Shown here: in pieces, positions 8,856-51,496 of the stretch
Layout: each line of letters starts with the position of its first letter
Numbering within the stretch: the stretch's first letter is position 1
Source: an uncultured SAR86 cluster bacterium
GTDB taxonomy: Bacteria; Pseudomonadota; Gammaproteobacteria; Magnimaribacterales; D2472
Assembly: GCA_902601475.1 (NCBI GenBank)
Contig: CACKNK010000001.1
Span: 208,584-272,583, forward strand
Direction of reading: 5' to 3'
Length of the DNA: 64,000 nucleotides
Translations under genes and position numbers: made by a program
The notes under the pieces: model-generated
The model's database searches: none
Seen by the model: only the letters and a program-made list of their open reading frames with translations
Told to the model about the DNA's origin: nothing

Positions 8856-9316
8856 CGACTGATCCCAAAATTATTTTCGTCAGCATACAACCAGTAGCCC
8901 GGTTTAAATATCAATCCTGCAAAGGAAATCATCGCTCCTCTTTTTCCAAGACCAAATTTTTCAGTTTTTTTAAACACGCTGCCTTTTGCAATTATTGATA
9001 TTGGAAGATCATTAATCTCTGTTACATCTCTTATGTAACCGTTTAAAACAACTCCCTGCCAATTATTTTTTACTGCCTCAGCAGCAATGTGATCACCAAT
9101 CATGGAAACATGATTAACTCCTGCTGCATCAATAACTAATATCCTACCTCTACCATCTTCTGCCAGAATTGATTTAACGAGGCTGTTATCATCGGTACAG
9201 AAAACAGTTTCTATCTCACCATTAAGAATATTAGATTTGCCATATCGAAGAAATCTTTTATTGGAGACATTTAACATCTGAGGATATAGGTCTGATATAT
9301 CTGGTAGAGTCTTCAA
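8837..9316 (-). CDS. rraA: RraA-family protein (RNase E regulator / HMG-aldolase-like)
   Basis: DDNSLVK...GRGRILVID, GD..A..A..NNWQGVVLNGYIRD and YADE. Confidence 0.88.
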   Translation of the reverse strand: MKTLPDISDLYPQMLNVSNKRFLRYGKSNILNGEIETVFCTDDNSLVKSILAEDGRGRILVIDAAGVNHVSMIGDHIAAEAVKNNWQGVVLNGYIRDVTEINDLPISIIAKGSVFKKTEKFGLGKRGAMISFAGLIFKPGYWLYADENNFGISRQKLEF

Positions 9317-10324
9317 TTAAGGCCTCTTATTAAACACATTTATAAAATTAAAGGGTGCTTCAGCATTAGGATTAAAAAAAGTTGGTGCTACTCTTTCAGC
9401 AATTTTAGAGTACCTTTCATGAATCTGATCCTTGGCAGAATTAATACTTCCGACAATGGCAATTGTTTCCAGCATTTCATCATTAATAAGTTTTGGCATC
9501 TCATCCCACGCTCCTTTCTTTGAGAGCTTGTTAAGTTCAAAATGTATATTCTCCCAACCATGCTCCTCAAGAACAACTTTATAGGCAGGTGTAGAGCCAT
9601 AAAAACCAAGCTGCATCCTCAGTCCATTAATTGCTTGATCAAGCTCATCCTGATCATCTGCAGCAGCTACCATGGCGCCAATTGAAATTTTAAAATTTTT
9701 ATTTTTTGATTTATTAAGCCCTTTATCTACTGCAGGAAGTGTTATGGCTTGAAGAGATTTTACTGAATGAAATGGATGAACCAATAATCCGTCAGCAACT
9801 TCTGCTGCTACACATGTCATTAATGGTCCTACTCCGGCAAGATATATGCTGGGAAGACCATACTCATGTTTTCCAGGATTAAAAAGTGGTGTCATAAGCG
9901 TATGACTATAAAATTCTCCTTTAAAATTTAACTGAGTTCCATTTTCCCAACACTCCCATATAGATTTTATAGCTTGGATCATTTCCCTCATTCTGTTTGC
10001 TGGAGAGGACCATGGCATTGAAAAGCGTTTTTCGATATGGGGTTTGATCTGAGATCCAAGACCCATAATAAATCGTCCTTTTGATAAGAGCTGTAAGTCA
10101 TAACCAATATTTGCTAACAGCATAGGATTCCTAGCAAAGGCAATGGCTATGGATGTAATTAAATTTATCTTTTTAGTATTTGATGCCGCAACTGCAAGCG
10201 GCAAGAATGGTTCATGAGGACCTTCAAATGTACACAGTCCATCAAATCCCGACGCCTCTATCTTTGAAGATAAATCTGCGGCATCACTAGGATCTCTAGT
10301 GATAATTGGCGCATCAATTTTCAT
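9317..10324 (-). CDS. Luciferase-like (LLM) oxidoreductase, probable F420-dependent family
   Basis: EGPHEPFLPL, IAIAFARNP, GRFIMGLGSQIKPHIEKRFSMPW, HTLMTPLF and FYGSTPAY. Confidence 0.85.
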   Translation of the reverse strand: MKIDAPIITRDPSDAADLSSKIEASGFDGLCTFEGPHEPFLPLAVAASNTKKINLITSIAIAFARNPMLLANIGYDLQLLSKGRFIMGLGSQIKPHIEKRFSMPWSSPANRMREMIQAIKSIWECWENGTQLNFKGEFYSHTLMTPLFNPGKHEYGLPSIYLAGVGPLMTCVAAEVADGLLVHPFHSVKSLQAITLPAVDKGLNKSKNKNFKISIGAMVAAADDQDELDQAINGLRMQLGFYGSTPAYKVVLEEHGWENIHFELNKLSKKGAWDEMPKLINDEMLETIAIVGSINSAKDQIHERYSKIAERVAPTFFNPNAEAPFNFINVFNKRP

Positions 10325-10407
10325 GAGATCATTCTAATCAAAATAAGGTTGCAATGATATGTTGGAACTGCGATGCTAATTTAATATATTTTTGGTATGA
10401 ATAAATT

Positions 10408-11019
10408 ATGAAGATTTTTGGATGTAATGATTCAAGACACGTTCGGCCTTTATGGACCGCAGAAGAAATGGGCTTGGATTATGAGTTAGAGATGCTGCCA
10501 TTCCCACCAAGATTTTTTAAAAAGGAATATTTGGATATAAATATTCTTGGCACTGTTCCATATTTAAAAGATGGAAAAGTTGAAATGACTGAGTCAGTGG
10601 CTATGTGTACTTATTTGTGTGAGCAATATGGTCCATCTGATTTAATAGTTTCTCCTGATGAAGATGACTATGCTGATTATCTAAATTGGCTTGCGCATTC
10701 TGATGCCACTTTGACCTTCCCTCTTACTGTTTACTTAAGATATGCCCTTCAAGAAGTTGGTGTAGCTGATGCAGCTGCAGAGGGTTACAAAAGATGGTTT
10801 TTGGCAAGACTAAGGTTGTTAGAAAAAAAATTAGAATCAAGGGAGTACCTTTGTAGCGACCGATTCACTTTAGCTGATATATGTGTCAGCTATGCTATTT
10901 ATTTAGCCACTTCTTTAAATGTTAACGAAGCATTAAAGCCAAATATAGCTCGATGGTCAGAAAAACTATTTAATCGAGATGCGTTTAAACGGGCAACTTC
11001 ACAAAGATTTATTGAATAG
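10408..11019 (+). CDS. Glutathione S-transferase family protein
   Basis: INILGTVP...ESVAM in the N-domain and YL..DRFTLADI in the C-domain. Confidence 0.9.
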   Translation: MKIFGCNDSRHVRPLWTAEEMGLDYELEMLPFPPRFFKKEYLDINILGTVPYLKDGKVEMTESVAMCTYLCEQYGPSDLIVSPDEDDYADYLNWLAHSDATLTFPLTVYLRYALQEVGVADAAAEGYKRWFLARLRLLEKKLESREYLCSDRFTLADICVSYAIYLATSLNVNEALKPNIARWSEKLFNRDAFKRATSQRFIE

Positions 11020-11067
11020 AGTTAACTGTTACTGAGCCAGCCACCATCTAAATAGAAACTAATAAAA

Positions 11068-12207
11068 TTATTCGCCTATAAAATTAGCTAGCCTTTCATA
11101 GGCCTCAATGAAGTCTTCTTTAAATTCTTGGACAACATCGCTGGCAGAAATGCTCTGATTCATTAGCCCTACTCCCTGACCAACCCAGTATGTAGAAAGA
11201 TCTTTAGCTCCTTCATGACCACCCTCTGCTAATTTATTAACCTTTGCTAATGCTGGTTCAGCGACCATAGGCTGTAAGGGCATTGGAAGTGGTTCAGGTG
11301 CACCATCAGCTTCCCAAGCTTGAGTCCATGCTGAAACAAGCTGTCTTGAATGTTTACCAGTTCTACTTCGAGAACGAGTTGTTTGACTCGAGGACGCTTC
11401 GATCATTTTTTGTTTAATTATAGGTGGAACTTCTGACTCAGCTGTTGTTAGCCATACTGATCCACACCATGCACCAGATGCACCCATGCTCATAGCTGCT
11501 GCCATCTGTTTTCCAGTTGCAATTCCGCCTGCTGCTAAGATTGGAACATCACCATAGGGTTGAATAGCTTCATAAACTTCAGGGATCAAGACCATTGTTG
11601 AAACACTGCCGCAATGACCTCCTGCTTCGGTGCCAGAAACTACTAATATATCGACGCCAGCTTTTACTTGGTTAATAGCATGTTGTGCGGTCCCAAGAAG
11701 TGCAGCAACTTTAACATTATTATCTTTACCCATTTTTACCATCCAATCGGGCGGCACACCAAGAGCATTAGCAATTATTTTTATGGGATGACTGAACGCA
11801 ACATCCAAAAGTGCCTTAGCCCCATCCTCCTTAGTGTTCTCAGCCATATATGTTGCAGCAGTATTAATATTTCTTAACTCACTTGCTTCAATATCATGAT
11901 TTTCAAGAACATCAGCCCTGAAATCAGCATATTCCTGTGGGATCATTGATGATAGTTTTTCTGCATCAAACTTTTTGTCCTTATCTGCCATTTTGTTAGG
12001 TATCAGAACATCTACTCCGTATGGCAAGCCATCGATATGATCATCAATCCATTTGAGCTCCTCTTCTAATTGTTCTGGTGTCATACCAACAGCACCTAGT
12101 ACACCACACCCTCCTGCTTTTGATACAGCAACAACCACATCTCTACAATGAGTAAATGCTACCAGAGGAAATTCGATATCTAATAGTTCGCAGATTCTTG
12201 AGTTCAT
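11068..12207 (-). CDS. Nitronate monooxygenase / FabK-like flavoprotein
   Basis: AVSKAGGCGVLG, GTEAGGH, AAGGIATG and GQGVG. Confidence 0.88.
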   Translation of the reverse strand: MNSRICELLDIEFPLVAFTHCRDVVVAVSKAGGCGVLGAVGMTPEQLEEELKWIDDHIDGLPYGVDVLIPNKMADKDKKFDAEKLSSMIPQEYADFRADVLENHDIEASELRNINTAATYMAENTKEDGAKALLDVAFSHPIKIIANALGVPPDWMVKMGKDNNVKVAALLGTAQHAINQVKAGVDILVVSGTEAGGHCGSVSTMVLIPEVYEAIQPYGDVPILAAGGIATGKQMAAAMSMGASGAWCGSVWLTTAESEVPPIIKQKMIEASSSQTTRSRSRTGKHSRQLVSAWTQAWEADGAPEPLPMPLQPMVAEPALAKVNKLAEGGHEGAKDLSTYWVGQGVGLMNQSISASDVVQEFKEDFIEAYERLANFIGE

Positions 12208-37872: not shown

Positions 37873-38895
37873 TCAAAGCTTCTTGCAAATTACATGTATT
37901 TGAGAACAATTATGATTTTTATCAATGATCTCTTGTAGCTGATCAGCATATTCAGAAAATTCATTTTCAAACCTTTGAATAAAATAATCAGAGCTTCCTG
38001 TTTTTTGCAAGCTAATCTGGATAGAGCGTTTTAAGTCTTGAATGTCAGTTCCAAATCTCCACTCCGCAATGGGCTTAACTCCAAGCTTTTTATTGAGGAT
38101 TTCAAGTGATTTTTCAGTAAATAGATGAGTATGTCCTCCACTTAAATGTCTGGGGAGAACATTCTCAAAAACAGATTCAATTGGAACAGATAAGCCATAT
38201 ATAGGAACGGAATAATATAAATATTTAAATGAAGATAAGTTAATAGCTTCAAGAAATTCATCCAAATTAGATATATGTTCCATAACTGCCATTAAAGATA
38301 AAACCTCAACATCTAATGATTTTATATGACTTGGAACGCGTTCAATATCTATTGATTCAAGGGGCCTTATGTCAAAATTTTTTTCGATAATACCGTTACC
38401 TGCATTGATTAGGGTTTTATTAACGTCTCCCCCTTTTGCATCAATGCCTCTGCTTAGAAAAGAATTGACAAGAAATCCTAGACCGCAACCAAAATCATAA
38501 ACTGATGAAATTTTTTTTGATAATTGATCAATCAGAAAATCAGCTTTGGGTAGATAAATATGATTAATACGATCATTGTAATTATCTTCTAAATAAAGCT
38601 TTGAATAATCAGATCCATCTTCATTTGAATATATTTCCTTAGCAAAATTAAGGGTGTCATCATGAATGCCATTCAAATGATCGCACTTGCGACAAAACTT
38701 ATATGAAACTAAATGCTTTGTAAAATCTATAGTTTCAGGCAGTTTGGATCCACATAATTTACATTTGTCTCTAGGAGGCTGTTTGAGGTAAACCCTATTC
38801 CTATCAAGTTCTGCTTTTAGCAAAGATTCATTGCGGTTGTAAAAACTTGATTTAATGTTCCTATAAAAATTTGATGATTTAGAGTATTTTTTCAT
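37873..38895 (-). CDS. Class I SAM-dependent methyltransferase with N-terminal Cys motifs
   Basis: CKLC and CRKC; VYDFGCGLG, VMEH and H..LFT. Confidence 0.82.
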   Translation of the reverse strand: MKKYSKSSNFYRNIKSSFYNRNESLLKAELDRNRVYLKQPPRDKCKLCGSKLPETIDFTKHLVSYKFCRKCDHLNGIHDDTLNFAKEIYSNEDGSDYSKLYLEDNYNDRINHIYLPKADFLIDQLSKKISSVYDFGCGLGFLVNSFLSRGIDAKGGDVNKTLINAGNGIIEKNFDIRPLESIDIERVPSHIKSLDVEVLSLMAVMEHISNLDEFLEAINLSSFKYLYYSVPIYGLSVPIESVFENVLPRHLSGGHTHLFTEKSLEILNKKLGVKPIAEWRFGTDIQDLKRSIQISLQKTGSSDYFIQRFENEFSEYADQLQEIIDKNHNCSQIHVICKKL

Positions 38896-38924
38896 TCTTA
38901 AGATCTTGTAGTAAAAATTAGTTT

Positions 38925-39716
38925 TTAATTTTTTTCACGATTTGTCCAAAATATTTTCTTTAAAACGCGAAAAGGTACCTTTAAAAATTCAGGAAAATAT
39001 TTGAATTTTATAAATGCCTTTACCCTTGATTCAAGATAATAAAAATAGCCGTTCTTTTGCGAATATTTTTCAAAATTTCTTTGATACCTTAGCTTAAGAG
39101 TGGAGGCATCTAATCCATCTTCATGAATACCAAATAATCTTAGCCAGTTAGCAATTCTTGCATTATGAGATGAACCAAACATTACATCTTCAGAGAAACA
39201 AAAATTGTTTAAGCCAGATTGACGTAAACGCTTTCTTATCATTCTTTCTTTATATTCATGGCCCTGAAACTCTCTGATATCAAAAGTAACTAAAAGAGAA
39301 TATATATTACTGAGTAGATTGGATTTAAGGAGACTATCTATTATATAAATTTCACTTCCTTCACAATTTGTTTTCATTACAACGAAATCATTAATACCAA
39401 TGTTTTCATTTAGCCATTGAGAGGCATCTCTTAATTCAATTTTTTCATATTGATCTGAGCAATTATCATTATTTGCTTCCTCAAAAATTGATCCAGACAA
39501 AGTTCCAGGCATATATAATGGAACCCTATCATTAGAATTACTTAAGCCAAATGGACATATTTCAACTCGACTATCTTGAGAAAATTTTTTATTAAGGATG
39601 TTTAATGCGTGGTTAGAAGGTTCAAAACAATAAACCTTATCAAATTTATATTTTGGCTTTAAAACTTCATCAAGAGTTTCTCCAAAATGAGAGCCAACAT
39701 CAAGAAATATGCGCAT
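38925..39716 (-). CDS. FkbM-family methyltransferase
   Basis: FLDVGSHFG, CFEP, PFGLSN and MKTNCEGSE. Confidence 0.85.
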   Translation of the reverse strand: MRIFLDVGSHFGETLDEVLKPKYKFDKVYCFEPSNHALNILNKKFSQDSRVEICPFGLSNSNDRVPLYMPGTLSGSIFEEANNDNCSDQYEKIELRDASQWLNENIGINDFVVMKTNCEGSEIYIIDSLLKSNLLSNIYSLLVTFDIREFQGHEYKERMIRKRLRQSGLNNFCFSEDVMFGSSHNARIANWLRLFGIHEDGLDASTLKLRYQRNFEKYSQKNGYFYYLESRVKAFIKFKYFPEFLKVPFRVLKKIFWTNREKN

Positions 39717-39823
39717 AGAAAATGGTCTTAAATAAATACATAATTATATCATTAGTAATTTTTAAAATTTGAGTTAAAAACATATCCTTAACTACTTTTT
39801 GAATAATATCTTAAAATTATAAT

Positions 39824-40795
39824 ATGTCAGTTTTAATTCTTGGGTATGGGAATAGATCTAAGAGCAATATTATTCCAGCCTTAAAAGCCCTAAACAAAAA
39901 AATCTATATCTATGGAAGAAATCCGCTAAAAACACTTGAGTTATGCAAACAGACTAATTGTATGCAAGTTAAAAGTCTTGATAGTTTACCTCAAAGCGTA
40001 GACATGATTTGTATCACAATCCCGTCAGATGTTTGTTTGGGCTATATAAATCAAATTAATAGCGATATTTGTTCAAAAAGTATTTTATATGTTGATACGC
40101 CTTTTTTTGGAAGTTTTAAAAACTTGAAACTTTTAAAACTTCAAAATAAATTTAGAAAAACCCTAGTAACTGAGGATTGGATAAGTAAGCCTTCTTTTGA
40201 AATAGTGAAAAGTCTTGCTTTGAAAAATAACCTTGGAGAATTAAAAGAGATCATTTTTAATAACTCTGGCTATTTTTATCATTCGCTCGCAATATCTCGA
40301 AGACTTTTTAAAAGAAAAATAAGCTTTGCATATTACAAAAATGGCAATTATTACTTTAATTTTGGATTAAAGAAAATGAGTATCATTAATCCAAAAAAAT
40401 ATGAAGATTGCTCAACAATCTATAAATTCAAACGCGGCATAATTGCTGATAGGGCAAATCATGAAGTGAAAATTGGCAAATGTGATCACGTCCTAACTCG
40501 ATCTCTAAGTGGTAAATCTTTGTCTTATGAATATTCATCAGACCTAACAAAAAATAAAAAGATCTTTAGTTTTCCACACTCATTAATTGAAAAAGATACT
40601 AACTATGAGAATATCGAAAAGTTTTTATCTCTTCAAAAGAAATTTACAGAAAATGAAATAGAATACTCTTTTGAGGAAGGTGCTTACGATAGTTTAATTT
40701 TTAATATCATTAATAAAACAAATTTTTTTATAGATATCTCTCTTAGAAATAATTCTCTCATTTATTTTATTTTAAAACTCTATGGCAAACTTTAA
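39824..40795 (+). CDS. Putative NAD(P)-dependent oxidoreductase (divergent Gfo/Idh/MocA-like)
   Basis: N-terminal Rossmann ILGYGNRS...IPAL, YGRN and VDTP in place of EKP. Confidence 0.5.
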   Translation: MSVLILGYGNRSKSNIIPALKALNKKIYIYGRNPLKTLELCKQTNCMQVKSLDSLPQSVDMICITIPSDVCLGYINQINSDICSKSILYVDTPFFGSFKNLKLLKLQNKFRKTLVTEDWISKPSFEIVKSLALKNNLGELKEIIFNNSGYFYHSLAISRRLFKRKISFAYYKNGNYYFNFGLKKMSIINPKKYEDCSTIYKFKRGIIADRANHEVKIGKCDHVLTRSLSGKSLSYEYSSDLTKNKKIFSFPHSLIEKDTNYENIEKFLSLQKKFTENEIEYSFEEGAYDSLIFNIINKTNFFIDISLRNNSLIYFILKLYGKL

Positions 40796-42251
40796 TACAT
40801 TCAAAAGCAAGCTAGACTTTGAAGAATTTTTTACTAAAAATAAATCAGAAAGCTTTATAGCGATCATTGGGTCTGGATTTGCATCCTTGTCATTAGTTAA
40901 AAATCTAAACACAAAGAAGATAATTGTCTTTGAAAAAGGTGAAAGGTTTAATGATCAATCCCTTCGTGGGCTAAAAATAGAAAATCTTGGTAATTATCAA
41001 CTAAAAGAAAATTCAATAGAAGAGTCTATTGGCGGATCATCAAACACATGGAGTGGAAGATTATCTGAGATGAATAAAGGAGAATTTTGTAGCACTAATA
41101 ATATTTGCATAAATATTTTTAATGAACTTATTAAAACTTTTTACAAAAAATCATGGAGATTTTTTGGATTTAAAAATTTTAAACAGATTGAAAGAGGCAA
41201 AAATGGTTATACAGAAAGAATTTTGCCGAAGCAATACAGCCCAATGAGAATAATTGAGTCCTTGAAAAGACTTAATATTAAATTAATTTATAAAGCCAAT
41301 GTCATAAATGTTGGTGAAGATTATTATGGAACGTTTATGAATGTAGTTTTTAATGATTTATTTGAAAAAAAAATATACTTTAAAAAAGTTGTTCTTGCCA
41401 ATGGAGGCATTAATTCATCGTTATTGCTAAAAAAATCATATCAAGATGGTTGCTTGAAGCCCAATAAATCTGAGCTCATTTCAAGTCATTATATGAATCA
41501 TCCAAAAATTATTTTTGAGAGGTTTTTTTCTAATCTTCCAAAAGAATCACCATTCTTTCTAAAAAAAAAATATGACTTAAACTTTTATGGTTATAGCCTA
41601 TCAAAAAGTATTAAAGAGGAAAGTTTTTTAAAAAATACTTATTTCACATTTCATCCAATTGCAATTGGTCAAAATACAATTGAATATGAGTGTGCAGATG
41701 AAATCATTCGCAACAAAAAGAAATGTTTTAAAATAATATTAGACTACATTAAAGAAAATAATTTTAACTTTTTTTCTATTTTAAAAATTTTTTATTTTTT
41801 GGGATGTAAGTTAAGAATTTTTAATATTCGAATTAAAAATTATGACTTAGAATATTTTTGTGAAATGCTCCCAAATAAAAGAAATAAAATATATGCTCAC
41901 CAAAACTCTATCAAGAGTGAAATAAATCTCTCAGAGGATGATTTCATAACTCTTGAGATCCTTCATCAAAAACTTGTTTCTGAATTTCCTTTAAATGTAA
42001 GAAGTAAATATAAAGATATAAATTTTAGAGATAAAAAATTTATTGATTCAAGTCATCATTTAGGCGGCATACCTTTGAGGGATGAACAAAAAAAGACTGT
42101 TATAAACGCTGACTTAAAAATTGTTGACTCAAAAAATATTTATGTTTGCAGTTCATCAGTATTTCAGAGTTCAGGCAGCTCAAATCCAACTCTTACGATT
42201 GTTGCTCTAGGTATAAGGCTAGCTGAACATCTGAATAATCTAAAAAAATAA
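40782..42251 (+). CDS. GMC-family FAD oxidoreductase
   Basis: IIGSG, IGGSSNTWSG, VVLANGG, YMNHP, SHHLGG and SGSSNPTLTIVAL. Confidence 0.85.
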   Translation: MANFNTFKSKLDFEEFFTKNKSESFIAIIGSGFASLSLVKNLNTKKIIVFEKGERFNDQSLRGLKIENLGNYQLKENSIEESIGGSSNTWSGRLSEMNKGEFCSTNNICINIFNELIKTFYKKSWRFFGFKNFKQIERGKNGYTERILPKQYSPMRIIESLKRLNIKLIYKANVINVGEDYYGTFMNVVFNDLFEKKIYFKKVVLANGGINSSLLLKKSYQDGCLKPNKSELISSHYMNHPKIIFERFFSNLPKESPFFLKKKYDLNFYGYSLSKSIKEESFLKNTYFTFHPIAIGQNTIEYECADEIIRNKKKCFKIILDYIKENNFNFFSILKIFYFLGCKLRIFNIRIKNYDLEYFCEMLPNKRNKIYAHQNSIKSEINLSEDDFITLEILHQKLVSEFPLNVRSKYKDINFRDKKFIDSSHHLGGIPLRDEQKKTVINADLKIVDSKNIYVCSSSVFQSSGSSNPTLTIVALGIRLAEHLNNLKK

Positions 42252-42268
42252 TTTTACCTATTATCTTC

Positions 42269-43849
42269 CTACTCCCACTCAATAGTGGCAGGTGGCTTAC
42301 CTGAAATATCATAAACCACCCTGCTTACTCCCTCTAACTCATTTACGATTCTATTAGATACCTTGCCCAAAAAGTCATATGGGAGCTTTGACCATTCAGC
42401 AGTCATAAAATCAATTGTTTTAACAGCTCTTAAAGCTATGACATCTGCGTAACGCCTTTCATCTCCAACAACACCTACAGATTTCACAGGAAGGTATACA
42501 CAAAATGCTTGGCTGACCTCATCATAAAAGCCTTCTTTTTTTAGCTCCTCAATAAATATTGCATCAGCTTCTTGAAGTATGTAAATGTTTTCTTGATTTA
42601 TCTCACCCAATATTCTGACTCCAAGCCCTGGACCAGGAAATGGATGTCTTTTAAGTATTTCATCTGGTAAGTTCAATAAAGCACCCATTTTTCTAACCTC
42701 ATCTTTAAATAAATCTCTTATTGGCTCTACAAGGTTCATTTTCATTTCATCTGGTAAACCGCCAACATTATGATGAGATTTTATAATTCTTGCTTCTTTT
42801 GATTCAGACTCAGATGACTCAATAACATCTGGATAAATTGTTCCCTGAGCTAAAAAATTAATTTCACTAGAAGAATGCAAATTAACTGATTCATTATCAA
42901 ATACATCTATAAATGTTCTGCCAATAACTTTTCTTTTTTGTTCTGGATCAGTTATCCCTTTTAAATGCCTATAAAATGTTTTCTTTGCATCGACAACTTC
43001 AAGATTTAGATCAATCTTATTTTTAAAAAGGTCTATCACCTCCTTAACTTCATTTTTTCTTAAGAGGCCATTATCTACAAACATACAGATTAAATTTTTG
43101 CCAATCGCCCTATCGAGCAGCATAGCAGTCACAGATGAATCAACTCCACCAGATAGACCTAATAGAACTTTTTTATCTCCAACTTGGGCTTTAATTTCCT
43201 GTATTCTTTGTTCAATTAAATCGTCTAATTTCCATGTCTTTTGTGATTTACATATTTCTACTGTGAAGTTTTCTATAATTTTTTGACCCTTATTCGTATG
43301 CGTTACCTCTGGATGAAATTGAAGTGCATAATAAGGCTTGTCTTTATGCTCCATAGCCGCAATAGGCGCAGATTCAGTTGAAGCGCTTAAGATAAAACCG
43401 TCAGGTAAGATTGAAACATGATCTCCGTGACTCATCCAAACATCAAGATTATCAGCATCTAGATCATTGAAGATTTTTGATGAATGCTCAATCTTTAATT
43501 CTGCGTAACCAAACTCCTTCTTAGAGGAAGTTCGAACACTTCCTCCATTTTGCTCAGCAAGAGTTTGCATCCCATAGCAAATACCAAGAATCGGAATATC
43601 TAAGTTAAAAATAATTTCTGGAATCCTAGGAGTATTTTCTTGGGTAACAGATTCTGGTCCTCCAGAAAGAATAACGCCTTTAGGTCTTAATGAGGATATT
43701 TTCTCTGGAGCAATATCCCATGGATATATTTCTGAATATACTCCTAACTCTCGTACTCTCCGAGCGATTAATTGAGTATATTGAGATCCAAAATCAAGAA
43801 CCAAAATAGTATCAAGATCTTCCTTGGATAGAGAACCCTTAATGCTCAT
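42269..43849 (-). CDS. guaA: GMP synthase (glutamine-hydrolysing)
   Basis: [36 protein letters not shown] and KPPATIEWE. Confidence 0.98.
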
Positions 43850-44412
43850 TTAATGAGTGGTGATATTTGATCAATTAGTTTTGAGACCTCAGGCTTATTA
43901 TCATTAATTTCCTGCATTGACAGTCCTTCAAGTTCATGTGGGAATACTAACCATTTATCAGTTTCATGTAGGTAGTAATCTGGTTTTCTTTTAGTTTTAT
44001 TTTTTGTTGGCTTGAAATACGGTGTAGCAACTCTTATTTCAGGTGTGTTTTTTTTACAAGCGAATTTAAGGTCAGAAATAATCTTTTCAATAGAGATGCC
44101 AGTGTCGTGGACATCATCAACTATAAGGAGTGAGTCTTCAGACTCCACTTGCTTAATGATGTAGTTAAGTCCATAGACTTGAACTTCGCTATCTCTTTGA
44201 TTTATAGCCTTATAGTGGGAAGTTCTAATGGCAATGTGATCTGAGGGTACGCCAAGTACACTAAAAAGTTCTTGAACGGCTATTCCAATAGGAGCACCGC
44301 CCCTCCAAACACCAATAATATAATTCGGCCTGTAACCGTCCTCAAAAACTTTCAAAGCAAGGTCGAACGAGTCCTGAATAAGATCTTCGGCTCTAATGAA
44401 ATGCTTTTCCAT
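43846..44412 (-). CDS. Type I phosphoribosyltransferase, probable purine salvage (Gpt-like)
   Basis: WRGG, PRPP loop [10 protein letters not shown] and C-terminal PDYY...WLVFPHE; ATGA overlap with guaA. Confidence 0.82.
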
Positions 44413-44417
44413 GGGTA

Positions 44418-44423
44418 ATTATA
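44418..44423 (-). promoter_or_regulatory. -10 hexamer TATAAT 5 nt before the PRTase ATG
   Basis: TATAAT-taccc-ATG with no Shine-Dalgarno sequence. Confidence 0.5.
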
Positions 44424-44465
44424 TATTGATAACCATGAAATTTAAGAGCAGAGCTGAATAACTTT

Positions 44466-46766
44466 TTAGTAATTCATGCTCAATCTAAGCATATATTGTC
44501 TTGGTGGAATTAATTCTAAACCTGTAGCTGCAACTCCAAACACGTCTGTCATACTGGAATTAACTCCATCTTCATCAGTTGCATTCAGGATCATAAAATC
44601 TAATCCCCATTTATCACCAACAAAATCAAGGCTCGCAGTTAAGTTCAAAATATCATAAGCATCAATAGCATCAACTATCGGATTGTTATTCACCCGTTGC
44701 TGGAATTCGCCTCTTTCAACATATTGAAGTATTCCAGTAAACATTGTTCCAGAAGATAATACAGTCTCATATGTCATTGTTATGTCAGCTGTAAATTCAG
44801 GAGTTTTAGCTAATTCATTACCTTTAATATTTTTTCTTAGGCCATATCTCAAATCTTCTTCACCAAAGAAATACTGGTATGCATCAACATTATCTAGTGC
44901 TTCATAATCAGAGGATACCTCTGAATCAAGAAATGCTAGATTCATGTCTAAAGTTAGCGAATCAGAAATTAAGCCAGTAAATTCAATCTCTAAACCTGAC
45001 ATTTCTGATTCTGGAATGTTGGCAACTCCACCACGGTATGGATCAGGATCTGTCGCTTGGAATTGAAGATTTTCATAATCATATGAAAAGATTGCAATAT
45101 TTGCTCTTGCCCTACCATCATATAAATCTGTTTTAAGACCAAATTCCATAGACTCTACTGTTTCAGCAGCAAAATTTGGGAAAACCATTGGGGGCGCATT
45201 ATCATCAGCAAAGCCATATGTAAGATTTGTTCCTCCTGGTTTAAAGCCAGCCGAGAAAGCAAGATATGCCAAAGTATCATCATCAAGATCAAATTCAGCA
45301 GCAATTTTTCCAGTTGTCTTATCAGAACTTCCACTTAAGTTGTCACATACAGTTGTGAAGAAATTTTTAACACAACTTTCGACCTCATCATCAGAATAAC
45401 GAAGCCCACTAAGAATACGAAATTCGTCAGAAACGCTGTAGGTGGTTTCTCCATAAACTGAGAATGACTCTCTTTTTGGAAAAGCATCACTTACAAAATC
45501 AAATTCAAAGAAAAACCAGGGATCCGGACCACCAACTGTAAAACAGTAATCATTTCTTGCAAAAGGCTCACCACAAACATATTGTAATTCTCCGTCTAAA
45601 TCATTATCTCTATATCCTCGAATATGATTTTCAATCTCATGATCCATGTAGAAAGCACCAATAGTCCAATCAAGCTTCCCACCCACTGCTGGCTCATTAG
45701 AAACTAAATTAATTTCAAAAGTTGTTGTGTCAACTAAAGAGGTTTCAGGGCGAAACTCAGCTCTCTGATAAGTTGCTCCGTCTCCTAGTCCAGGAATTGC
45801 TAAAACGGGATCACCGAAATTGTGACGATCATTATCTCTGGTTACTGAAATATCATCCTCTTGCATGCTCGCCATAATTTTTAAATTTGCATAACCAAGA
45901 TCAGATTCATAAATTGCAGCAAAGATCTTTGAAGTTAGCTCATGATTTGAGATAGAGTCTTGAGATAAGTCCCTTGGGTCTGGTGATGGATCATCAATAC
46001 CTTTCATCGCAGAACCATTTCTATCAACTTCAAAAAACTGACCAAAAAATCTTAATGAAGAACTATTTCCAAATTCTGTAAGGAAATCCGCACGAAGGCT
46101 CAAGTTACTATCATCATCTAGATCTTGTCCAGTTACTAAATTTTCACTAAAACCATCTCTTTCTGAAGTAGAAATTGAAAATCTGGCAGCAGTTGAACTA
46201 CCTAATACGATATTATTAGATGAGCGAAATCTTGTTAGGCCATAATTTCCAAAAGTAATATCAGATTTCCCTAAATATCCTTCCATAGATGGTTTTTTAC
46301 TGATTACATTTATCACACCCCCAGTAGAATTCTGTCCGAAAAGTGTTCCTTGAGGGCCTCTTAAAACCTCAATTCTTTCTACATCAATAAAATCAGTTTG
46401 TAATGAAAAGGGAGAAGCTATAAAAATACCATCCATATGGAAAGCAACTGAAGGAGCTGCTATCGCATTTTGATTGGTTTCATTTCCAACACCTCTTATA
46501 GAAATTACCGTCTTATAGCCTTCATTCTTTGCAACAGTTACTCCTGGAACAATTGCACTTAGATCTACAAAAGAGGTAATGTTTTTATTTTCTATATCCT
46601 CATCACTTATTGCCGTCACCGCTTGTGATATATCTTGCAAGCTTTCACTTCTCTTTTCGGCAGTTACAAATACTTCTTCTATAAAGCTATCTTGTGCACT
46701 AAGACCAATACAACCAAATAGAAGTGCGAAAAACTTAATACTTTTAAGATGACTTGTTGATTTCAT
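44466..46766 (-). CDS. TonB-dependent receptor
   Basis: Signal peptide, TonB box EEVFVTAEKR, plug IRG...ERIEVLRGPQGTLFG..STGGVIN and C-terminal PRQY...Y. Confidence 0.95.
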   Translation of the reverse strand: MKSTSHLKSIKFFALLFGCIGLSAQDSFIEEVFVTAEKRSESLQDISQAVTAISDEDIENKNITSFVDLSAIVPGVTVAKNEGYKTVISIRGVGNETNQNAIAAPSVAFHMDGIFIASPFSLQTDFIDVERIEVLRGPQGTLFGQNSTGGVINVISKKPSMEGYLGKSDITFGNYGLTRFRSSNNIVLGSSTAARFSISTSERDGFSENLVTGQDLDDDSNLSLRADFLTEFGNSSSLRFFGQFFEVDRNGSAMKGIDDPSPDPRDLSQDSISNHELTSKIFAAIYESDLGYANLKIMASMQEDDISVTRDNDRHNFGDPVLAIPGLGDGATYQRAEFRPETSLVDTTTFEINLVSNEPAVGGKLDWTIGAFYMDHEIENHIRGYRDNDLDGELQYVCGEPFARNDYCFTVGGPDPWFFFEFDFVSDAFPKRESFSVYGETTYSVSDEFRILSGLRYSDDEVESCVKNFFTTVCDNLSGSSDKTTGKIAAEFDLDDDTLAYLAFSAGFKPGGTNLTYGFADDNAPPMVFPNFAAETVESMEFGLKTDLYDGRARANIAIFSYDYENLQFQATDPDPYRGGVANIPESEMSGLEIEFTGLISDSLTLDMNLAFLDSEVSSDYEALDNVDAYQYFFGEEDLRYGLRKNIKGNELAKTPEFTADITMTYETVLSSGTMFTGILQYVERGEFQQRVNNNPIVDAIDAYDILNLTASLDFVGDKWGLDFMILNATDEDGVNSSMTDVFGVAATGLELIPPRQYMLRLSMNY

Positions 46767-46892
46767 AATTTTTTAATCCCTTATTAAAGAAAATGCTCTT
46801 ATATAATATTTATGCAATATTAATGCCATTTTTTGTTAGATAATTTTTAAAATCTGGAACCTTGAAAAGTATGAGAGATTTACTTTTGGTTG

Positions 46893-46906
46893 TTAAATGC
46901 ATTTAA
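46893..46906. promoter_or_regulatory. 14-bp palindrome in the receptor/permease divergent intergenic region
   Basis: TTAAATGCATTTAA. Confidence 0.35.
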
Positions 46907-46968
46907 AAGCTATAACAAAAATATAGTATAAGTTGTAAACTTAATTTTTAAATACCTTTAGAGAAAAA

Positions 46969-48258
46969 ATGCTCGAAAAAATCTTCAAATTAAAAAATTT
47001 TAATACTGATTTTAAAAGTGAGGTTCTTGCAGGCATCACTACTTTCATAACTATGGCATACATTATCTTCGTAAATCCACAAATGATGGCTGCAAGCGGC
47101 ATGGATATTGGTGCTAGTTTCGTTGGAACATGTATTGCTGCTTCTATTGCGTGTATCGCAATGGGAGTATATGCAAATTGGCCTGTTGGTTTAGCGCCCG
47201 GCATGGGTTTAAATGCATTTTTTACCTACACAGTAGTCGGTGAGATGGGTTACTCATGGGAAGTGGCTTTAGGTGCAGTATTTCTAGCTGGAATTCTGTT
47301 TTTTATAATGAGTGTAACGCCTCTCAGGCAATGGATGCTAGAGAGTATTCCTTTCAATTTACGAATTGCAATGGGTGCTGGTGTTGGTTTATTCATTGGA
47401 ATTATTGGTCTTAAAAGTGGTGGAATAATTACTTCAAATGAAGCTACCCTCCTCAGCATGGGTGACCTTACAAACCCGGAGACAATTTTAGCAATGTTTA
47501 GTTTTTTAGTAATTGCTGTGCTTTCGATCCGTAAAATACCTGGTGCCATTGTCATAGGAATATTTTTAGTTACTTCCATAGCTTTGGCTTTAAATCTTAT
47601 TAAATTTAATGGGATCGTTTCATCGCCCCCCTCCTTAATGCCAGTTTTGTTAAAACTTGATATTTCTCAAGCCTTTGATTTAGCCATGATCAGCATCATT
47701 ATGTCCTTTCTCTTTGTTAACTTATTCGATACAGCTGGAACCCTTGTCGGAGTAGCTAATCAGGCTAAACTCATAAACGCTAATGGTGATATTGATAATT
47801 TAGATAGAGCACTGAAAGCTGATAGTAGTTCAAGTGCTGTTGGTTCTTTATTTGGATGCTCTCCTGTGACTAGTTACGTTGAAAGCTCTGCTGGAATAGA
47901 GGCTGGCGGAAGAACTGGTTTAACTGCAGTCACAGTTGGAATGTTGTTTCTTTTGGCAATATTTTTTGCTCCACTAGCTTCGATGATTCCTACTTATGCA
48001 ACATCTGGTGCATTGATTTACGTAGCGATCTTGATGCTGAGCAGCATGGAAAAACTGAATTGGTCTGATTTAAGCGACCTGCTACCGGCTCTAGTAATAG
48101 TTGTGATGATGCCATTAACCTTTTCGATCGCTAATGGAATAGCACTTGGATTTTTATCTTATGTGATAATAAAAATTTTTTCAGGACAACTTAAAGCTAT
48201 TTCCTCAGGAGCATGGTTTCTTACAATAATCTTTTTGTCAAAATTTATTTTTTTATAA
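46969..48258 (+). CDS. NCS2/AzgA-like purine nucleobase permease
   Basis: EVLAGITTFITMAYIIFVNP, APGMGLNAFF, FDTAGTL, YVESSAGIEAGGRTGLT and PLTFSIANG. Confidence 0.93.
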   Translation: MLEKIFKLKNFNTDFKSEVLAGITTFITMAYIIFVNPQMMAASGMDIGASFVGTCIAASIACIAMGVYANWPVGLAPGMGLNAFFTYTVVGEMGYSWEVALGAVFLAGILFFIMSVTPLRQWMLESIPFNLRIAMGAGVGLFIGIIGLKSGGIITSNEATLLSMGDLTNPETILAMFSFLVIAVLSIRKIPGAIVIGIFLVTSIALALNLIKFNGIVSSPPSLMPVLLKLDISQAFDLAMISIIMSFLFVNLFDTAGTLVGVANQAKLINANGDIDNLDRALKADSSSSAVGSLFGCSPVTSYVESSAGIEAGGRTGLTAVTVGMLFLLAIFFAPLASMIPTYATSGALIYVAILMLSSMEKLNWSDLSDLLPALVIVVMMPLTFSIANGIALGFLSYVIIKIFSGQLKAISSGAWFLTIIFLSKFIFL

Positions 48259-48259
48259 G

Positions 48260-49723
48260 CTAGCTTCTTTGGTAATTTGGAGCTTCTTTGGTGATCATGA
48301 CATCATGAACATGACTTTCCATCATCCCGGCATTAGTTACCTCAATGAATTCGGTTTCAGTTTGCATCGATTCTATGGTTTTGCATCCAACATATCCCAT
48401 ACTTTGACGCAGCCCTCCTTCAAACTGATCTAAAACTTTAACTACAACTCCTTTATAAGGGACCCTGCCTTCTACTCCCTCAGGAACAAGCTTTTCTGCC
48501 TCGATTTCATCTTGAGAATATCTATTTGCGTCATTTCTTTCAGACATTGCACCCAAAGAACCCATGCCTCTATACGTTTTAAAACTTCTGCCTTGATAAA
48601 GCTCTATTTCACCTGGAGCCTCTTCTGTACCTGCCAACATACTGCCAAGCATTACGGAAGATGCACCAGCAGCAATTGCTTTTGCTAAATCGCCTGAAAA
48701 TCTTATGCCGCCATCAGCAATTAATGGTGTGGATGAGTTTTTCATAGCATCTCTTATTGATAATATTGCTGTAATTTGTGGGACACCCATTCCTGCAATG
48801 ATTCTCGTAGTGCATATGGAACCAGGACCCATACCTATTTTAATTGCATCTGCTCCAGCCTCATCCAAAGCTACTGCACCTTCAGGAGTTGCAACATTTC
48901 CAGCAATCACTTGAACATCTTTAAAGTTATTTTTTAACAGTTTGATAGTTTCAATAACATTTTTTGAGTGACCATGAGCTGAATCGACAACAAATACATC
49001 TACACCCATTTCATTAAGGGCTTCTGCCCTTTCCAACGTATCAGTTCCTGTTCCTAAAGCAGCGGCAACCAGTAACTGTCCAGAGGTATCTTTTGTTGCC
49101 AATGGGAACTCAGCAGACTTATCTATGTCCTTCATCGTAACCAGTCCAGAAAGACTGCCAGCTTTATCAAGCACTAATACCTTTTCAATACGGTTCTGGT
49201 ACATTAATTTTTTTACTTCATCTTGATCAGTTCCCTCATTAACAGTAATTAATCTCTCAAGTGGAGTCATGATAGAACTTACAGATTCATTTAAATTATC
49301 TGCATACCTAAAATCTCTAGAAGTAACGATGCCTTTTAAAACTCCATCATCAACAACTGGCATACCTGAGATATTAAGTTCGCTTGTAAGTTTAACTAAG
49401 TCTTCGATGGATTGAGTTGACTGAATTGTTATCGGATCTTTAACAATTCCACTCTCATATTTCTTGACTGTTCGGACATGGGTTGCCTGATCTTCAATGG
49501 TGTTGTTTTTATGTATAACACCGATACCTCCACTTTCAGCCATAGCAATTGCCATTCTTGATTCAGTTACTGTATCCATTGCAGCTGAAATTATCGGCAG
49601 GTTTAGAGATATTTCTCTAGTTAGTTTTGTTCTTAAAGAAGCTTCTTTTGGAGTAAAGTCAGAGTATCTTGGCAAGAGCAAGACATCATCATACGTAAGG
49701 GCTTTGAATTTGATCTTTTCCAT
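48260..49723 (-). CDS. guaB: IMP dehydrogenase
   Basis: LTYDDVLL, SAAMDTVTE, a CBS pair, GPGSICTTR, YRGMGS and VPEGVEG. Confidence 0.98.
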   Translation of the reverse strand: MEKIKFKALTYDDVLLLPRYSDFTPKEASLRTKLTREISLNLPIISAAMDTVTESRMAIAMAESGGIGVIHKNNTIEDQATHVRTVKKYESGIVKDPITIQSTQSIEDLVKLTSELNISGMPVVDDGVLKGIVTSRDFRYADNLNESVSSIMTPLERLITVNEGTDQDEVKKLMYQNRIEKVLVLDKAGSLSGLVTMKDIDKSAEFPLATKDTSGQLLVAAALGTGTDTLERAEALNEMGVDVFVVDSAHGHSKNVIETIKLLKNNFKDVQVIAGNVATPEGAVALDEAGADAIKIGMGPGSICTTRIIAGMGVPQITAILSIRDAMKNSSTPLIADGGIRFSGDLAKAIAAGASSVMLGSMLAGTEEAPGEIELYQGRSFKTYRGMGSLGAMSERNDANRYSQDEIEAEKLVPEGVEGRVPYKGVVVKVLDQFEGGLRQSMGYVGCKTIESMQTETEFIEVTNAGMMESHVHDVMITKEAPNYQRS

Positions 49724-49728
49724 ATGGA

Positions 49729-49734
49729 ATTATA
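49729..49734 (-). promoter_or_regulatory. -10 hexamer TATAAT 5 nt before the guaB ATG
   Basis: TATAAT-tccat-ATG with no Shine-Dalgarno sequence. Confidence 0.5.
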
Positions 49735-49774
49735 CTTTTAGGAAAAAGAAAAAACAAAAAATAACTCTATGAAG

Positions 49775-50110
49775 TTAGTTGATCAGTGTTTCAGTTTTGG
49801 CTGCACAAATAAAGTCATTCATGTGTAAGCCTTTAATCTTATGTGACCACCATTGAACTCTTACCGAACCCCACTCTAATAAAATTGATGGATGGTGATC
49901 TTCGTCTTCCGCTAATTTCGCAATGTCTATGGCAAACTTGACCGAGTCTTCATAATTATCAAATGAATAGGTCTTAGAGAGTATATTTATATCTTCATAA
50001 ATAATTTCCCAGCCATCAAGATCCTTTAGAAGTTCAGTAAATCTTTTTTCATCTACCAATGGAGCATCGATGGTGCATGCTTCACACTTTTGTTTTGTTA
50101 GATCCGTCAA
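49775..50110 (-). CDS. phhB: Pterin-4-alpha-carbinolamine dehydratase
   Basis: CEAC, AEDEDHHP and WWSHKIKGLHMNDFICAAK. Confidence 0.92.
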   Translation of the reverse strand: MTDLTKQKCEACTIDAPLVDEKRFTELLKDLDGWEIIYEDINILSKTYSFDNYEDSVKFAIDIAKLAEDEDHHPSILLEWGSVRVQWWSHKIKGLHMNDFICAAKTETLIN

Positions 50111-51496
50111 TTAGATACCACCTTTGGTAAGCTTTTTTGGATCTAGTATTGAATTTAATCTTTTAATTGATATCCCTGTCTCTTCATGAGCTACATCAAT
50201 TATGGGTCTACTATCTTTATAAGCTTTTTTAGCAATCAACGCAGCCTTTTCATAACCAATTTCTCTATTTAGAGCAGTAACTAATATAGGATTTTTAGAT
50301 AATTGTTTTTCGATATTTTTTTTATTGACCTTAAAAATTTTGATTCCTTTTGAAGCCAATAAAGTACATGAGTTAGCTGCAAGAGTAATACTTTTAAGCA
50401 AGTTATATGCGATGACAGGCAACATAACATTCAATTGAAAGTTTCCAGCTTGATTAGCATAAGAAACAGTCAAATCATTTCCTAATATATCAGCCGAAGC
50501 CATCATAACCGATTCACTTACGACAGGATTAACCTTTCCAGGCATGATGCTGCTTCCTGGCTGAAGAGCCTGAAGTTCAATTTCACCTAAACCAGTCAGT
50601 GGACCACTATTCATCCATCTCAAGTCATTTGAAATTTTTAAAAGCACTAGTGCCAAGTTCTTTACTGCGCTAGACATATTTGTAGCAGCATCTTGACTGC
50701 TAAGAGATTTAAAATAATTTCTTGATGACTTAAATTTTATCTTTGTTAGTTTTGAAACCTCAGTAGCAAAAATATTTCCAAAATTCTTAGGTGCATTAAT
50801 TCCAGTTCCTATTGCTGTGCCCCCTTGAGGCAATGATTTTAAACCATCAGCCGCTAGCTTAATTTGCTTGTATTGATCACCTAACTGAGCAGCCCAACCT
50901 GATAGTTCTTGCGCCATATCAATGGGCATAGCATCCATAAGATGAGTTCTACCAGTTTTAACTACACCCTTAACTTTGAGTTCCTTAGATTTTATTTGAT
51001 TTATAAGGCTTTTTAGAGATGGCAATAAAAGCTTTTCAACATCAAGCAAAGCAGAAATATGAATTGCTGTTGGAATAACATCATTACTGCTCTGACTCAT
51101 ATTTACATCATCATTCGGATGAATCGATGTTTTACCTTTTTTTGATGCAATTGTTGCCATGACCTCATTTGCATTCATATTTGTGCTGGTTCCTGAACCT
51201 GTCTGAAAAATATCTAATGGAAATTGATCGTCATACTTGCCATCAATAATCTCTTTAGCTGCATACTTTATAAGTTTTGATTTAGTTGATGGTAGTAATT
51301 TTAATGCCGCATTAGAGCTAGCTGCAGCATGCTTAATTATTCCAAGTGCCTCTATGAAAGATCTTCCAAAAGGAAATGCAAACTTAATTCCGCTGATTTG
51401 GAAATTATCCAATGCTCTTTGTGTTTGAGCACCCCAAAGAGCGGTTGATGGCACTTTAACTTCGCCAAGAGAGTCTTTTTCTATTCTATATTTCAT
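50111..51496 (-). CDS. fumC: Class II fumarate hydratase
   Basis: WGAQTQR, QTGSGTSTNMNANEV, GRTHLMDA and GSSIMPGKVNP. Confidence 0.96.
   Translation of the reverse strand: MKYRIEKDSLGEVKVPSTALWGAQTQRALDNFQISGIKFAFPFGRSFIEALGIIKHAAASSNAALKLLPSTKSKLIKYAAKEIIDGKYDDQFPLDIFQTGSGTSTNMNANEVMATIASKKGKTSIHPNDDVNMSQSSNDVIPTAIHISALLDVEKLLLPSLKSLINQIKSKELKVKGVVKTGRTHLMDAMPIDMAQELSGWAAQLGDQYKQIKLAADGLKSLPQGGTAIGTGINAPKNFGNIFATEVSKLTKIKFKSSRNYFKSLSSQDAATNMSSAVKNLALVLLKISNDLRWMNSGPLTGLGEIELQALQPGSSIMPGKVNPVVSESVMMASADILGNDLTVSYANQAGNFQLNVMLPVIAYNLLKSITLAANSCTLLASKGIKIFKVNKKNIEKQLSKNPILVTALNREIGYEKAALIAKKAYKDSRPIIDVAHEETGISIKRLNSILDPKKLTKGGI

Follow-up and report, generated by a model that had tools for sequence, protein, structure and literature searches.

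The window analysed here is a stretch of 64,000 nucleotides (contig CACKNK010000001.1) from the genome of an uncultured SAR86 cluster bacterium, and coordinates are counted from its first letter as position 1; the source genome, of 1.35 Mb in 22 contigs and with low G+C, is called G000. Within it lie three adjoining genes, for a TonB-dependent receptor (TBDR), an AzgA-like permease of the NCS2 family and a type I purine phosphoribosyltransferase (PRT), which on balance probably constitute a module for the high-affinity salvage of purine bases, induced when nitrogen is limiting. That the receptor clade would be the first of the TonB-dependent transporters (TBDTs) to carry free nucleobases, in a mobile three-gene cassette under NtrC and sigma-54, together with the AzgA-like permease and an archaeal-type hypoxanthine-guanine-xanthine phosphoribosyltransferase (HGXPRT), and spread among SAR86, SAR92 and OCS116/PS1, which belong to the most abundant marine heterotrophs of oligotrophic waters, is a broader claim to which we give even chances.

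A preliminary description of the region, made from the letters alone, had proposed a complete route of purine capture from the outer membrane to guanosine monophosphate (GMP), framed by the separation of guaB from guaA. The five-gene order that it gave, guaB(-), NCS2(+), TBDR(-), PRT(-), guaA(-), is borne out by open reading frames (ORFs) whose families are clear from their profile scores (Table 1), and the same is true of the divergent gap of 202 bp between TBDR and NCS2 (46767-46968) and of the ATGA overlap, in which the PRT stop (...ATT AAA TGA) lies over the guaA start (ATG AGC...). The proposed route itself gains support from synteny, from co-occurrence in 26 of 41 genomes and from the purine PRT family of the enzyme, with the substrate read from the context.

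The 41 genomes in question are G000 and 40 relatives of its order. Full-length TBDR orthologues are found in 26 of them (49-100% identity, E 5e-204 or lower), the next-best matches being paralogues (E 7e-43 or higher), and PRT and NCS2, each in a single copy, were detected in precisely these 26 and not in the remaining 15. When 25 orthologue loci were fetched with about 8 kb on each side, PRT lay directly downstream of TBDR in all 25 and NCS2 lay divergently upstream in 24; in the twenty-fifth, G018, it adjoins TBDR in two pieces. Since it is conserved in 25 of 25 related loci, the arrangement is not due to chance. As regards G018 itself (C25:4036-5082, also L100), NCS2 is matched there as residues 2-137 and 250-429, and it may be disrupted or misassembled.

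The split of guaB from guaA, which the preliminary description took as the frame of the system, is a real arrangement but a restricted one: guaB / NCS2 <> TBDR-PRT-guaA, with guaA as the final gene of the string in the genus of G000, is found in nine of the 25 related loci (10 of the 26 genomes). In two others the order is TBDR-PRT-guaB-guaA, in three guaA or guaBA lies 1.3-4.5 kb away, and in 11, two of them short contigs, neither gene appears in the fetched flanks. The adjacency of the trio thus holds with or without guaA or guaB nearby, and the conserved unit is the trio NCS2 <> TBDR-PRT, of which the guaB/guaA split is one local arrangement.

Beyond these genomes, a species-representative collection yielded 38 TBDR loci, some of them repeating genomes of the set of 41; named records among the orthologue loci include SCGC AAA168-P09, called SAR86 (PMC4611503), SCGC AAA076-P13, assigned to a SAR86 genus (PMC9771814), and TMED104. 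In 24 of the 38 the receptor is 47% or more identical, and 16 of these 24 carry PRT downstream, while one ends inside TBDR with NCS2 upstream. In L045 and L048 genes for NCS2-type permeases lie about 1.5 kb downstream of TBDR. In L045, which of these two was annotated, they are pbuX-like and AzgA-like, the gene after them encodes an 8-oxoguanine deaminase (638.4 bits, cut-off 532), and ureC/E/F/G stand upstream. L059 and L061, of the Porticoccaceae, have two PRT paralogues each, and L059, the annotated one of this pair, adds a guanine deaminase (630.7 bits), a urate oxidase of PuuD type, an 8-oxoguanine deaminase (633.4 bits) and a binding protein of the basic membrane protein (BMP) family with an ATP-binding cassette (ABC) permease. 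Two of the 24 loci are on contigs too short to judge, and 21 of the 22 that can be judged have purine genes nearby.

The same association is seen from the side of the enzyme. A search for PRT relatives gave 530, of which the best 80 were kept. In 28 of these loci PRT is at least 66% identical, and 25 of the 28 have a TBDR orthologue immediately upstream (of the other three, one cannot be judged and two are Porticoccaceae without TBDR); the 52 more distant loci have none in that place. The 25 include records labelled SAR92, HTCC2207 and Cellvibrionales, in which TBDR is 42-72%, mostly 46-47%, identical. The complete trio is present in records labelled SAR92, Porticoccaceae and HTCC2207, and also in two alphaproteobacterial single-cell genomes, one of the PS1 clade and the other OCS116 AG-430-B22 (identities of 58% for TBDR, 68% for NCS2 and 69% for PRT), an indication that the trio as a whole has passed from one class to another. 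The linkage of the receptor to purine genes, which had been set beforehand as the test, stands, for receptors at least 46% identical, at 25/25 in the related loci, 21/22 in the collection and 25/28 for the closest PRT loci among the best 80 of 530, and it spans four purine-related neighbourhoods and two proteobacterial classes.

Table 1. Coordinates of the module and of its neighbours in the window
Feature	Coordinates	Strand	Profile match or basis
guaA, glutamine-hydrolysing GMP synthase	42269..43849	-	NF000848, 801.8 bits (cut-off 400)
PRT, type I purine phosphoribosyltransferase, 188 aa	43846..44412	-	PF00156 Pribosyltran, 39.9 bits (cut-off 26.3)
TBDR, TonB-dependent receptor, 766 aa	44466..46766	-	Plug (PF07715), 69.4 bits; TonB_dep_Rec_b-barrel (PF00593), 114.6 bits
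Sigma-54 (-24/-12) promoter, TGGCATTAATATTGCA	46813..46828	-	Block kept in the aligned divergent gaps; the TBDR start codon follows after 45 nt
Second conserved intergenic block, TTAAGTTTACAACTTATACTAT	46923..46952	-	Kept in the g1/g9 genera (intergenic alignment)
NCS2, AzgA-like purine base permease, 429 aa	46969..48258	+	PF00860 Xan_ur_permease, 165 bits
guaB, IMP dehydrogenase	48260..49723	-	TIGR01302, 602.5 bits (cut-off 481.5); convergent with NCS2

Just past guaA, at 37873-42251, the window holds four genes with a G+C of 0.25-0.29, two of them methyltransferase-like (one of FkbM type), the third encoding a protein of 323 aa without a family and the fourth a GMC-oxidoreductase-like protein. 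They have a counterpart in none of the 25 related loci, even in strains whose TBDR is 99% identical, so that this segment is a strain-specific variable island beside guaA.

The receptor, the enzyme and the permease

The TBDR protein has a plug (residues 43-151) and a barrel, and inspection of its sequence adds a signal peptide, a C-terminal tyrosine and, near the mature N-terminus, the segment IEEVFVTA, which by the family consensus we take to be the TonB box (its ends read MKSTSHLKSIKFFALLFGCIGLSAQ / DSFIEEVFVTAEKR ... LSMNY). By plug, barrel, signal peptide and TonB box it belongs to the TBDTs of the outer membrane, and TonB itself, as proteins with TonB_C, was found in all five of the genomes in which gene content was checked, namely G000 and the near-complete G007, G009, G026 and G031. 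An AlphaFold model built with 23 aligned sequences (pTM, the predicted template modelling score, 0.82) has the plug and, after residue 165, 22 long barrel strands, and the top 50 Foldseek matches to it are all TBDTs (13-19% identity, TM 0.6-0.73). None of the 25 NCBIfam models listed for it is above its cut-off, the best being TIGR01783 with 117.3 bits against 223.5, and by these cut-offs the protein falls outside the siderophore, cobalamin and haem receptor subfamilies. From its gene context it is proposed to be an outer-membrane importer of purines.

Two observations concern the variation of the receptor. Across all loci PRT and NCS2 (about 70%) have diverged more slowly than TBDR (47-60%). 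In addition, the allele of L019 (G006) is a mosaic in comparison with 44466-46766 of the window: identity is 91-97% for the genes on either side and 97-100% for the plug (residues 31-150) and the C-terminus of the receptor, but for the barrel (residues 151-720) it drops to 40-87%, which suggests recombinational replacement of the surface-exposed parts.

As for the enzyme, a PRTase in the preliminary description, its closest solved relatives are purine PRTs: that of P. horikoshii (1vdm, E 1.3e-13) and GpT-2 of S. solfataricus (4z1o, 4.5e-10), with S. solfataricus GpT-1 (4trb) matching nearly as well (7.6e-10) and bacterial Hpt at only 4e-4. It remains below the bacterial model for hypoxanthine-guanine phosphoribosyltransferase (TIGR01203, 31.5 bits against a cut-off of 150) and below the Gpt/Xpt model (NF006613, 26.8 bits against 138), and it would thus appear nearer to the archaeal-type purine PRTs than to bacterial Hpt, a predicted HGXPRT in its working that lies outside the bacterial Hpt/Gpt equivalogs. 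Its segment VDDVxDTG aligns with the loops that bind phosphoribosyl pyrophosphate (PRPP) in 1vdm, 4z1o and 6d9q, and the C-terminal motif PDYY..DKW(L/I)(V/I)FP, the purine-loop motif of the 6-oxopurine enzymes, is common to PRT (as DKWLVFP), 1vdm and GpT-2; GpT-1, presumably an adenine PRT, as the title of one reference points to, has VSWAWFMY at this position. Both the HGXPRT of S. solfataricus and the enzyme of P. horikoshii are counted as 6-oxopurine PRTs (PMC7326950). The SAR86 protein also carries a C-terminal extension of roughly 28 residues, and its close homologues are labelled hypoxanthine phosphoribosyltransferase in the JGI and NCBI sources.

The remaining proteins of the same family point in a similar direction. 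In the five genomes those with PF00156 are prs-like, purF, apt-sized, PRT and, in some, pyrE-sized; the apt-sized protein is apt in the three cases checked, and no further hpt- or gpt-like PF00156 protein was found besides PRT. Because apt is separate and no other such protein was found, PRT is the only candidate for a 6-oxopurine PRT in these genomes, and it is probably specific for hypoxanthine, guanine or xanthine. In G007 (L078, C1:1008700-1012900) a canonical apt (173.6 bits) has NCS2 as its immediate neighbour, and next come an FkbM methyltransferase and then an ORF of 526 aa that is guaA by tblastn, so that the salvage cluster of this genome also holds an adenine PRT. The permease, for its part, has as its closest solved relatives the adenine/guanine permease AZG1 (E 3e-70) and AZG2 (6.7e-51), and it may be placed in the AzgA-like subfamily of purine permeases, with a predicted substrate of that kind.

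A sigma-54 promoter and the response to nitrogen

A MAFFT alignment of the divergent gaps of 15 loci contains an almost invariant TGGCAT-N5-TTGCAT, a -24/-12 element of sigma-54, which in the window is TGGCAT-N5-TTGCA on the strand of TBDR with the correct spacing; control by sigma-54 and NtrC does not figure in the preliminary description. The strict pattern TGGCAY-N5-TTGCW has 14 matches on both strands of the whole G000 genome, only one of which precedes a TBDR; across the 25 related loci it stands upstream of TBDR in 18, and in one further with a single mismatch (CGGCAT). A looser form, TGGCAC-N5-NTGCW, precedes the urease-linked and the Porticoccaceae orthologues, and TGGCATAGTTTTTGCT precedes that of OCS116.

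The other well-placed sites of G000 belong to glnII-ntrB-ntrC and to an operon of a TorF-family porin with glnK and amt, with further ones at a secreted protein of 91 aa and at a short, terminator-ended transcript after a tRNA. Together with the TBDR operon these two nitrogen regulation (Ntr) operons, the 91-aa protein and the small RNA candidate appear to form a very small Ntr regulon. The Ntr operons, the second a marine subtype whose TorF-family member is a putative porin, lie at C2:221000-225100 and C4:40500-44300 (L080, L081), and the gene for the 91-aa protein at C3:115214. On contig C14, at about 3933-4040 (+) (L085), a tRNA gene is closely followed by a sigma-54 promoter with the same sequence as that of TBDR, TGGCATTAATATTGCA, and a GC-rich hairpin with a T-run follows about 90 nt on, without an ORF, which makes of this element a candidate for an NtrC-dependent small RNA. 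Two strict matches, before a sodium:solute symporter (SSS) gene and before a protein of 304 aa, were set aside as probable chance, being inside longer ORFs.

Each of the five genomes has one strong PF00158 activator (234-246 bits), all remaining matches, in AAA+ proteins of 747-856 aa, scoring 29 bits or less; in G000 the strong one is NtrC (TIGR01818, 632.3 bits, cut-off 558.6). The gene rpoN is full-length in G000 (274.9 bits, cut-off 277.35), G007, G009 and G031. In G026, a genome 97% complete, there is only an rpoN fragment of 91 aa (C1:833391-833573) and its locus, L035, is also without the motif, so that control by sigma-54 may have been lost in the family of G026. A single activator and a sigma-54 promoter would imply control by NtrC and induction under nitrogen limitation, and to judge from these elements the operon probably responds to it.

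The five upstream regions with sigma-54 sites have no shared NtrC box, and the k-mers shared by the intergenic regions are only AT-rich words of low complexity. The second conserved block (46923-46952) overlaps a sigma-70-like TTTAAA-16-TATACT, a weak match; it is a candidate constitutive promoter, operator or NtrC site. The sigma-70 scan is uninformative, because it gave 14 matches against 28.3 in shuffled sequences, that is, fewer; on the + strand before NCS2 there is no sigma-70-like site, and a GG..GC pair found there is wrongly spaced. A riboswitch or other known RNA in the gap was likewise considered and rejected: an Rfam scan of 42000-50300 with E up to 1 gave nothing in it, and its two matches, both outside the gap, are at chance level.

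With regard to expression, 16 runs recorded as RNA contain parts of the stretch, and marine metatranscriptome contigs from four runs of three studies were aligned to it. They cover guaA, PRT, TBDR and NCS2 at 90-99% likeness, bridge the junction of PRT and guaA in three runs (43587-43899, 43783-44175 and 43550-44074) and, by one contig (44272-44674), that of TBDR and PRT; another contig has its end at 46782, on the downstream side of the predicted start. All this is consistent with an operon.

The substrate and the alternatives

The preferred reading supposes a sequence of steps that would begin with nitrogen limitation, when NtrC~P would activate the promoter of Table 1 and TBDR and PRT, with guaA where it follows, would be expressed. 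In seawater, where free purine bases are very dilute, TBDR would bind them, guanine, xanthine or hypoxanthine being the likeliest ligands and oxidised forms of purines also possible ones, and with energy from TonB-ExbBD would move the base into the periplasm, from where NCS2 would carry it over the inner membrane. PRT would then join it to PRPP, giving GMP or the monophosphates of xanthosine (XMP) or inosine (IMP), and GuaA and GuaB would convert XMP and IMP to GMP.

Regarding the completeness of the de novo pathway, a matter raised in the preliminary description, purF, the only pur gene checked, is over its cut-off in 40 of the 41 genomes, and because of its presence auxotrophy is, on this gene, ruled out as the reason for the module. 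With de novo synthesis kept, the gain would be a saving of nitrogen and of energy. Neither guanine deaminase nor the molybdenum-binding domain of xanthine dehydrogenase, MoCoBD_1, is over cut-off in any of the five genomes, which points to purines being assimilated and not catabolised. PNP_UDP_1 finds only a protein of 177 aa resembling methylthioadenosine (MTA) nucleosidase, in two of the five, and a nucleoside hydrolase (IU_nuc_hydro) occurs in one; nucleoside-cleaving enzymes were not found in four of the five, and Tsx was found in none. The preliminary description had left the choice between purine bases and nucleosides, and this scarcity of nucleoside-cleaving enzymes and of Tsx favours the free bases, nucleosides being the less likely substrate of TBDR in SAR86. 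The apparent absence of porins, for its part, would account for a receptor devoted to so small a solute.

Several observations weigh against this reading. Purine bases, of about 135-170 Da, are far smaller than the ligands of classical TBDTs, and the model of TBDR, by AlphaFold and Foldseek, is a generic TBDT fold that gives no hint of a ligand; the substrate of the receptor is read from gene context, and its transport and the activity of PRT are predictions. The related genomes are not independent samples, and G000 is 81% complete. The preliminary description would have been contradicted by receptors in unrelated contexts, and such a context is seen for one orthologue, L060 (47% identity), where a span of 6 kb holds no purine gene and the neighbours are a CsiR-like GntR regulator, a 2-hydroxymuconic-semialdehyde dehydrogenase, a glutathione S-transferase and a VIT-VWA protein, and for 14 homologues of 33-36% identity (Woeseiaceae and others), for which tblastn gave no PRT, NCS2 or gua match and of which four annotated loci adjoin transporters of the major facilitator superfamily (MFS). 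The sigma-54 motif is missing in six of the 25 loci (L028, L029, L030, L032, L033 and L035), and no clear NtrC palindrome lies upstream of TBDR, where glnII has upstream sites of the TGCACTAAAATAGTGCA type. The transcript contigs are no proof of one continuous transcript, and DNA may be present in RNA libraries. A 5'-nucleotidase domain is found in two of the five genomes, G031 and G000 itself. Lastly, Porin_1 and Porin_4 are over cut-off in none of the five, but in the 14 control genomes these models were positive in only one and three, so that the absence of classical porins in these genomes is only a hint.

Beside the distant homologues stands L063 (Woeseiaceae, 2595-11784), where a receptor 35% identical to TBDR is accompanied by a ribokinase (306.4 bits, cut-off 299.65), a LacI repressor similar to RbsR/PurR, an amidohydrolase that resembles deaminases and a pair of MFS transporters, and which may be a ribose or nucleoside locus.

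The first alternative is that TBDR imports larger purine molecules (nucleosides, nucleotides or short oligonucleotides), whose bases would be freed in the periplasm before NCS2, and we regard it as rather unlikely. It would suit what is generally known of the family, whose ligands are usually above about 600 Da, as well as the BMP/PnrA-like binding protein and ABC permease that adjoin the Porticoccaceae orthologue, the 5'-nucleotidase-like gene of G000 and G031, and the ribokinase and the repressor beside the distant homologue of L063. The only published TonB-linked system for nucleic acids that was found, ddbABCDEF, likewise handles DNA fragments (PMC12478041). In none of the 25 loci, however, is a nuclease, nucleotidase or nucleosidase part of the module, purine nucleoside phosphorylase was not found and nucleoside hydrolase only in one of the five genomes, and the sole conserved partner at the inner membrane is a permease for bases.

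A second alternative, that TBDR mainly takes 8-oxoguanine, urate or allantoin as a source of nitrogen and that the SAR86 trio is the reduced remnant of a catabolic system, seems to us quite improbable. Such a function would agree with two independent contexts in which the receptor has an 8-oxoguanine deaminase beside it and urate oxidase and urease not far off, and control by sigma-54 and NtrC would suit the scavenging of nitrogen; but the SAR86 genomes that bear the trio are without guanine deaminase and xanthine dehydrogenase, for lack of which oxidised purines would be unusable in them, and the trio is strictly kept with PRT, which needs a base that can be salvaged.

Finally, TBDR could carry an unrelated substrate, such as a metal chelate or a vitamin, its purine neighbours being a matter of shared regulation or inherited order, a possibility of equally small weight. 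In its favour are the source label 'iron complex outermembrane receptor protein', the yersiniabactin receptor FyuA as the closest solved sequence relative, the lack of purine neighbours in L060 and the fact that close relatives may inherit a gene order that has no functional meaning. Against it, the label is generic, the likeness to FyuA is limited to the plug (residues 30-168) with 16% identity overall, the association with purine genes has persisted through rearrangement into four different purine contexts and through passage from class to class, presence and absence equal those of PRT and NCS2 in the 41 genomes, and of the 14 strict sigma-54 matches this is the only one before a TBDR.

Known systems and consequences for SAR86

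In salvage of the E. coli type, AzgA-like permeases (GhxP/GhxQ, AdeP/AdeQ) act with Hpt and Gpt, and Tsx or porins serve the outer membrane. The SAR86 module resembles it in that an AzgA-like permease is followed by a PRT that would yield IMP, XMP and GMP and feed GuaB and GuaA; it differs in that the outer-membrane step would be an energised receptor and not diffusion (Tsx, Porin_1 and Porin_4 were not found in the five genomes), in that its PRT is archaeal-like and not Hpt or Gpt, and in that the genes are clustered and under sigma-54. With the archaeal-type 6-oxopurine PRTs (1vdm, 4z1o) it has in common the PRPP loop and the C-terminal purine-loop motif described above, although the SAR86 enzyme is bacterial, has the C-terminal extension and is of predicted specificity only.

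In SAR86, as in other marine oligotrophs, TonB-dependent receptors rank with the genes of highest expression, and most of them have no assigned substrate. With the classical TBDTs (FyuA, FhuA, FoxA, BtuB and PqqU) TBDR shares the signal peptide, the TonB box, the plug and the barrel of 22 strands, yet it is only 13-19% identical to the solved ones, its context is purine salvage and not iron, cobalamin or pyrroloquinoline quinone (PQQ), and its promoter is of sigma-54 and not controlled by Fur or by a riboswitch. The preliminary description knew of no TonB-dependent receptor for purines, and none for purines or nucleobases appeared in the literature searched, the scope of which excluded subscription papers and bioRxiv supplements. 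The transcript functions reported as abundant for SAR86A and AG-430-B22 do include tonB-dependent receptors (PMC13096325).

The closest published system, as far as its available text goes, is the SusC-like transporter DdbC of the Bacteroides DNA-utilisation locus ddbABCDEF, whose DdbC/DdbD are proposed for DNA fragments (PMC12478041). That system is of SusC/D type, with a lid lipoprotein and with extracellular and periplasmic nucleases; the SAR86 module is without lid or nuclease and is paired with a base permease and a PRT. The purine-usage operons of SAR11, in which dissolved purines are assimilated and which in some lineages go without catabolism (Braakman et al., Sci Adv 2025, PMC11698098), offer a likeness of another order, since both groups are abundant, streamlined marine heterotrophs that assimilate dissolved purines, SAR86 by the present proposal. 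The gene families of the SAR86 module are different ones, and it has a receptor at the outer membrane in addition. The same study, in a BLASTp search (E < 1e-25) that used homologues taken from its own operons, reported 57 SAR86 genomes to be without purine-usage genes, and in its available text TonB is not mentioned (PMC11698098).

What is proposed as new is a class of substrate for a known family of transporters, the receptor being part of a three-gene cassette that is conserved, mobile and controlled by Ntr. If this is true, a purine-specific and nitrogen-regulated receptor would add a substrate class to the TBDT family, and the range of energised uptake at the outer membrane would come to include solutes of about 150 Da, on whose capture streamlined cells without general porins would be spending energy. 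The proposal offers concrete targets, one receptor, one permease and one enzyme, and culturable relatives exist in SAR92 and the Porticoccaceae. In the surface ocean, SAR86 would consume dissolved purines, driven by its need for nitrogen, where the published view is that it has no purine-usage genes, and the partition of purine and pyrimidine cross-feeding proposed there would need revision (PMC11698098).

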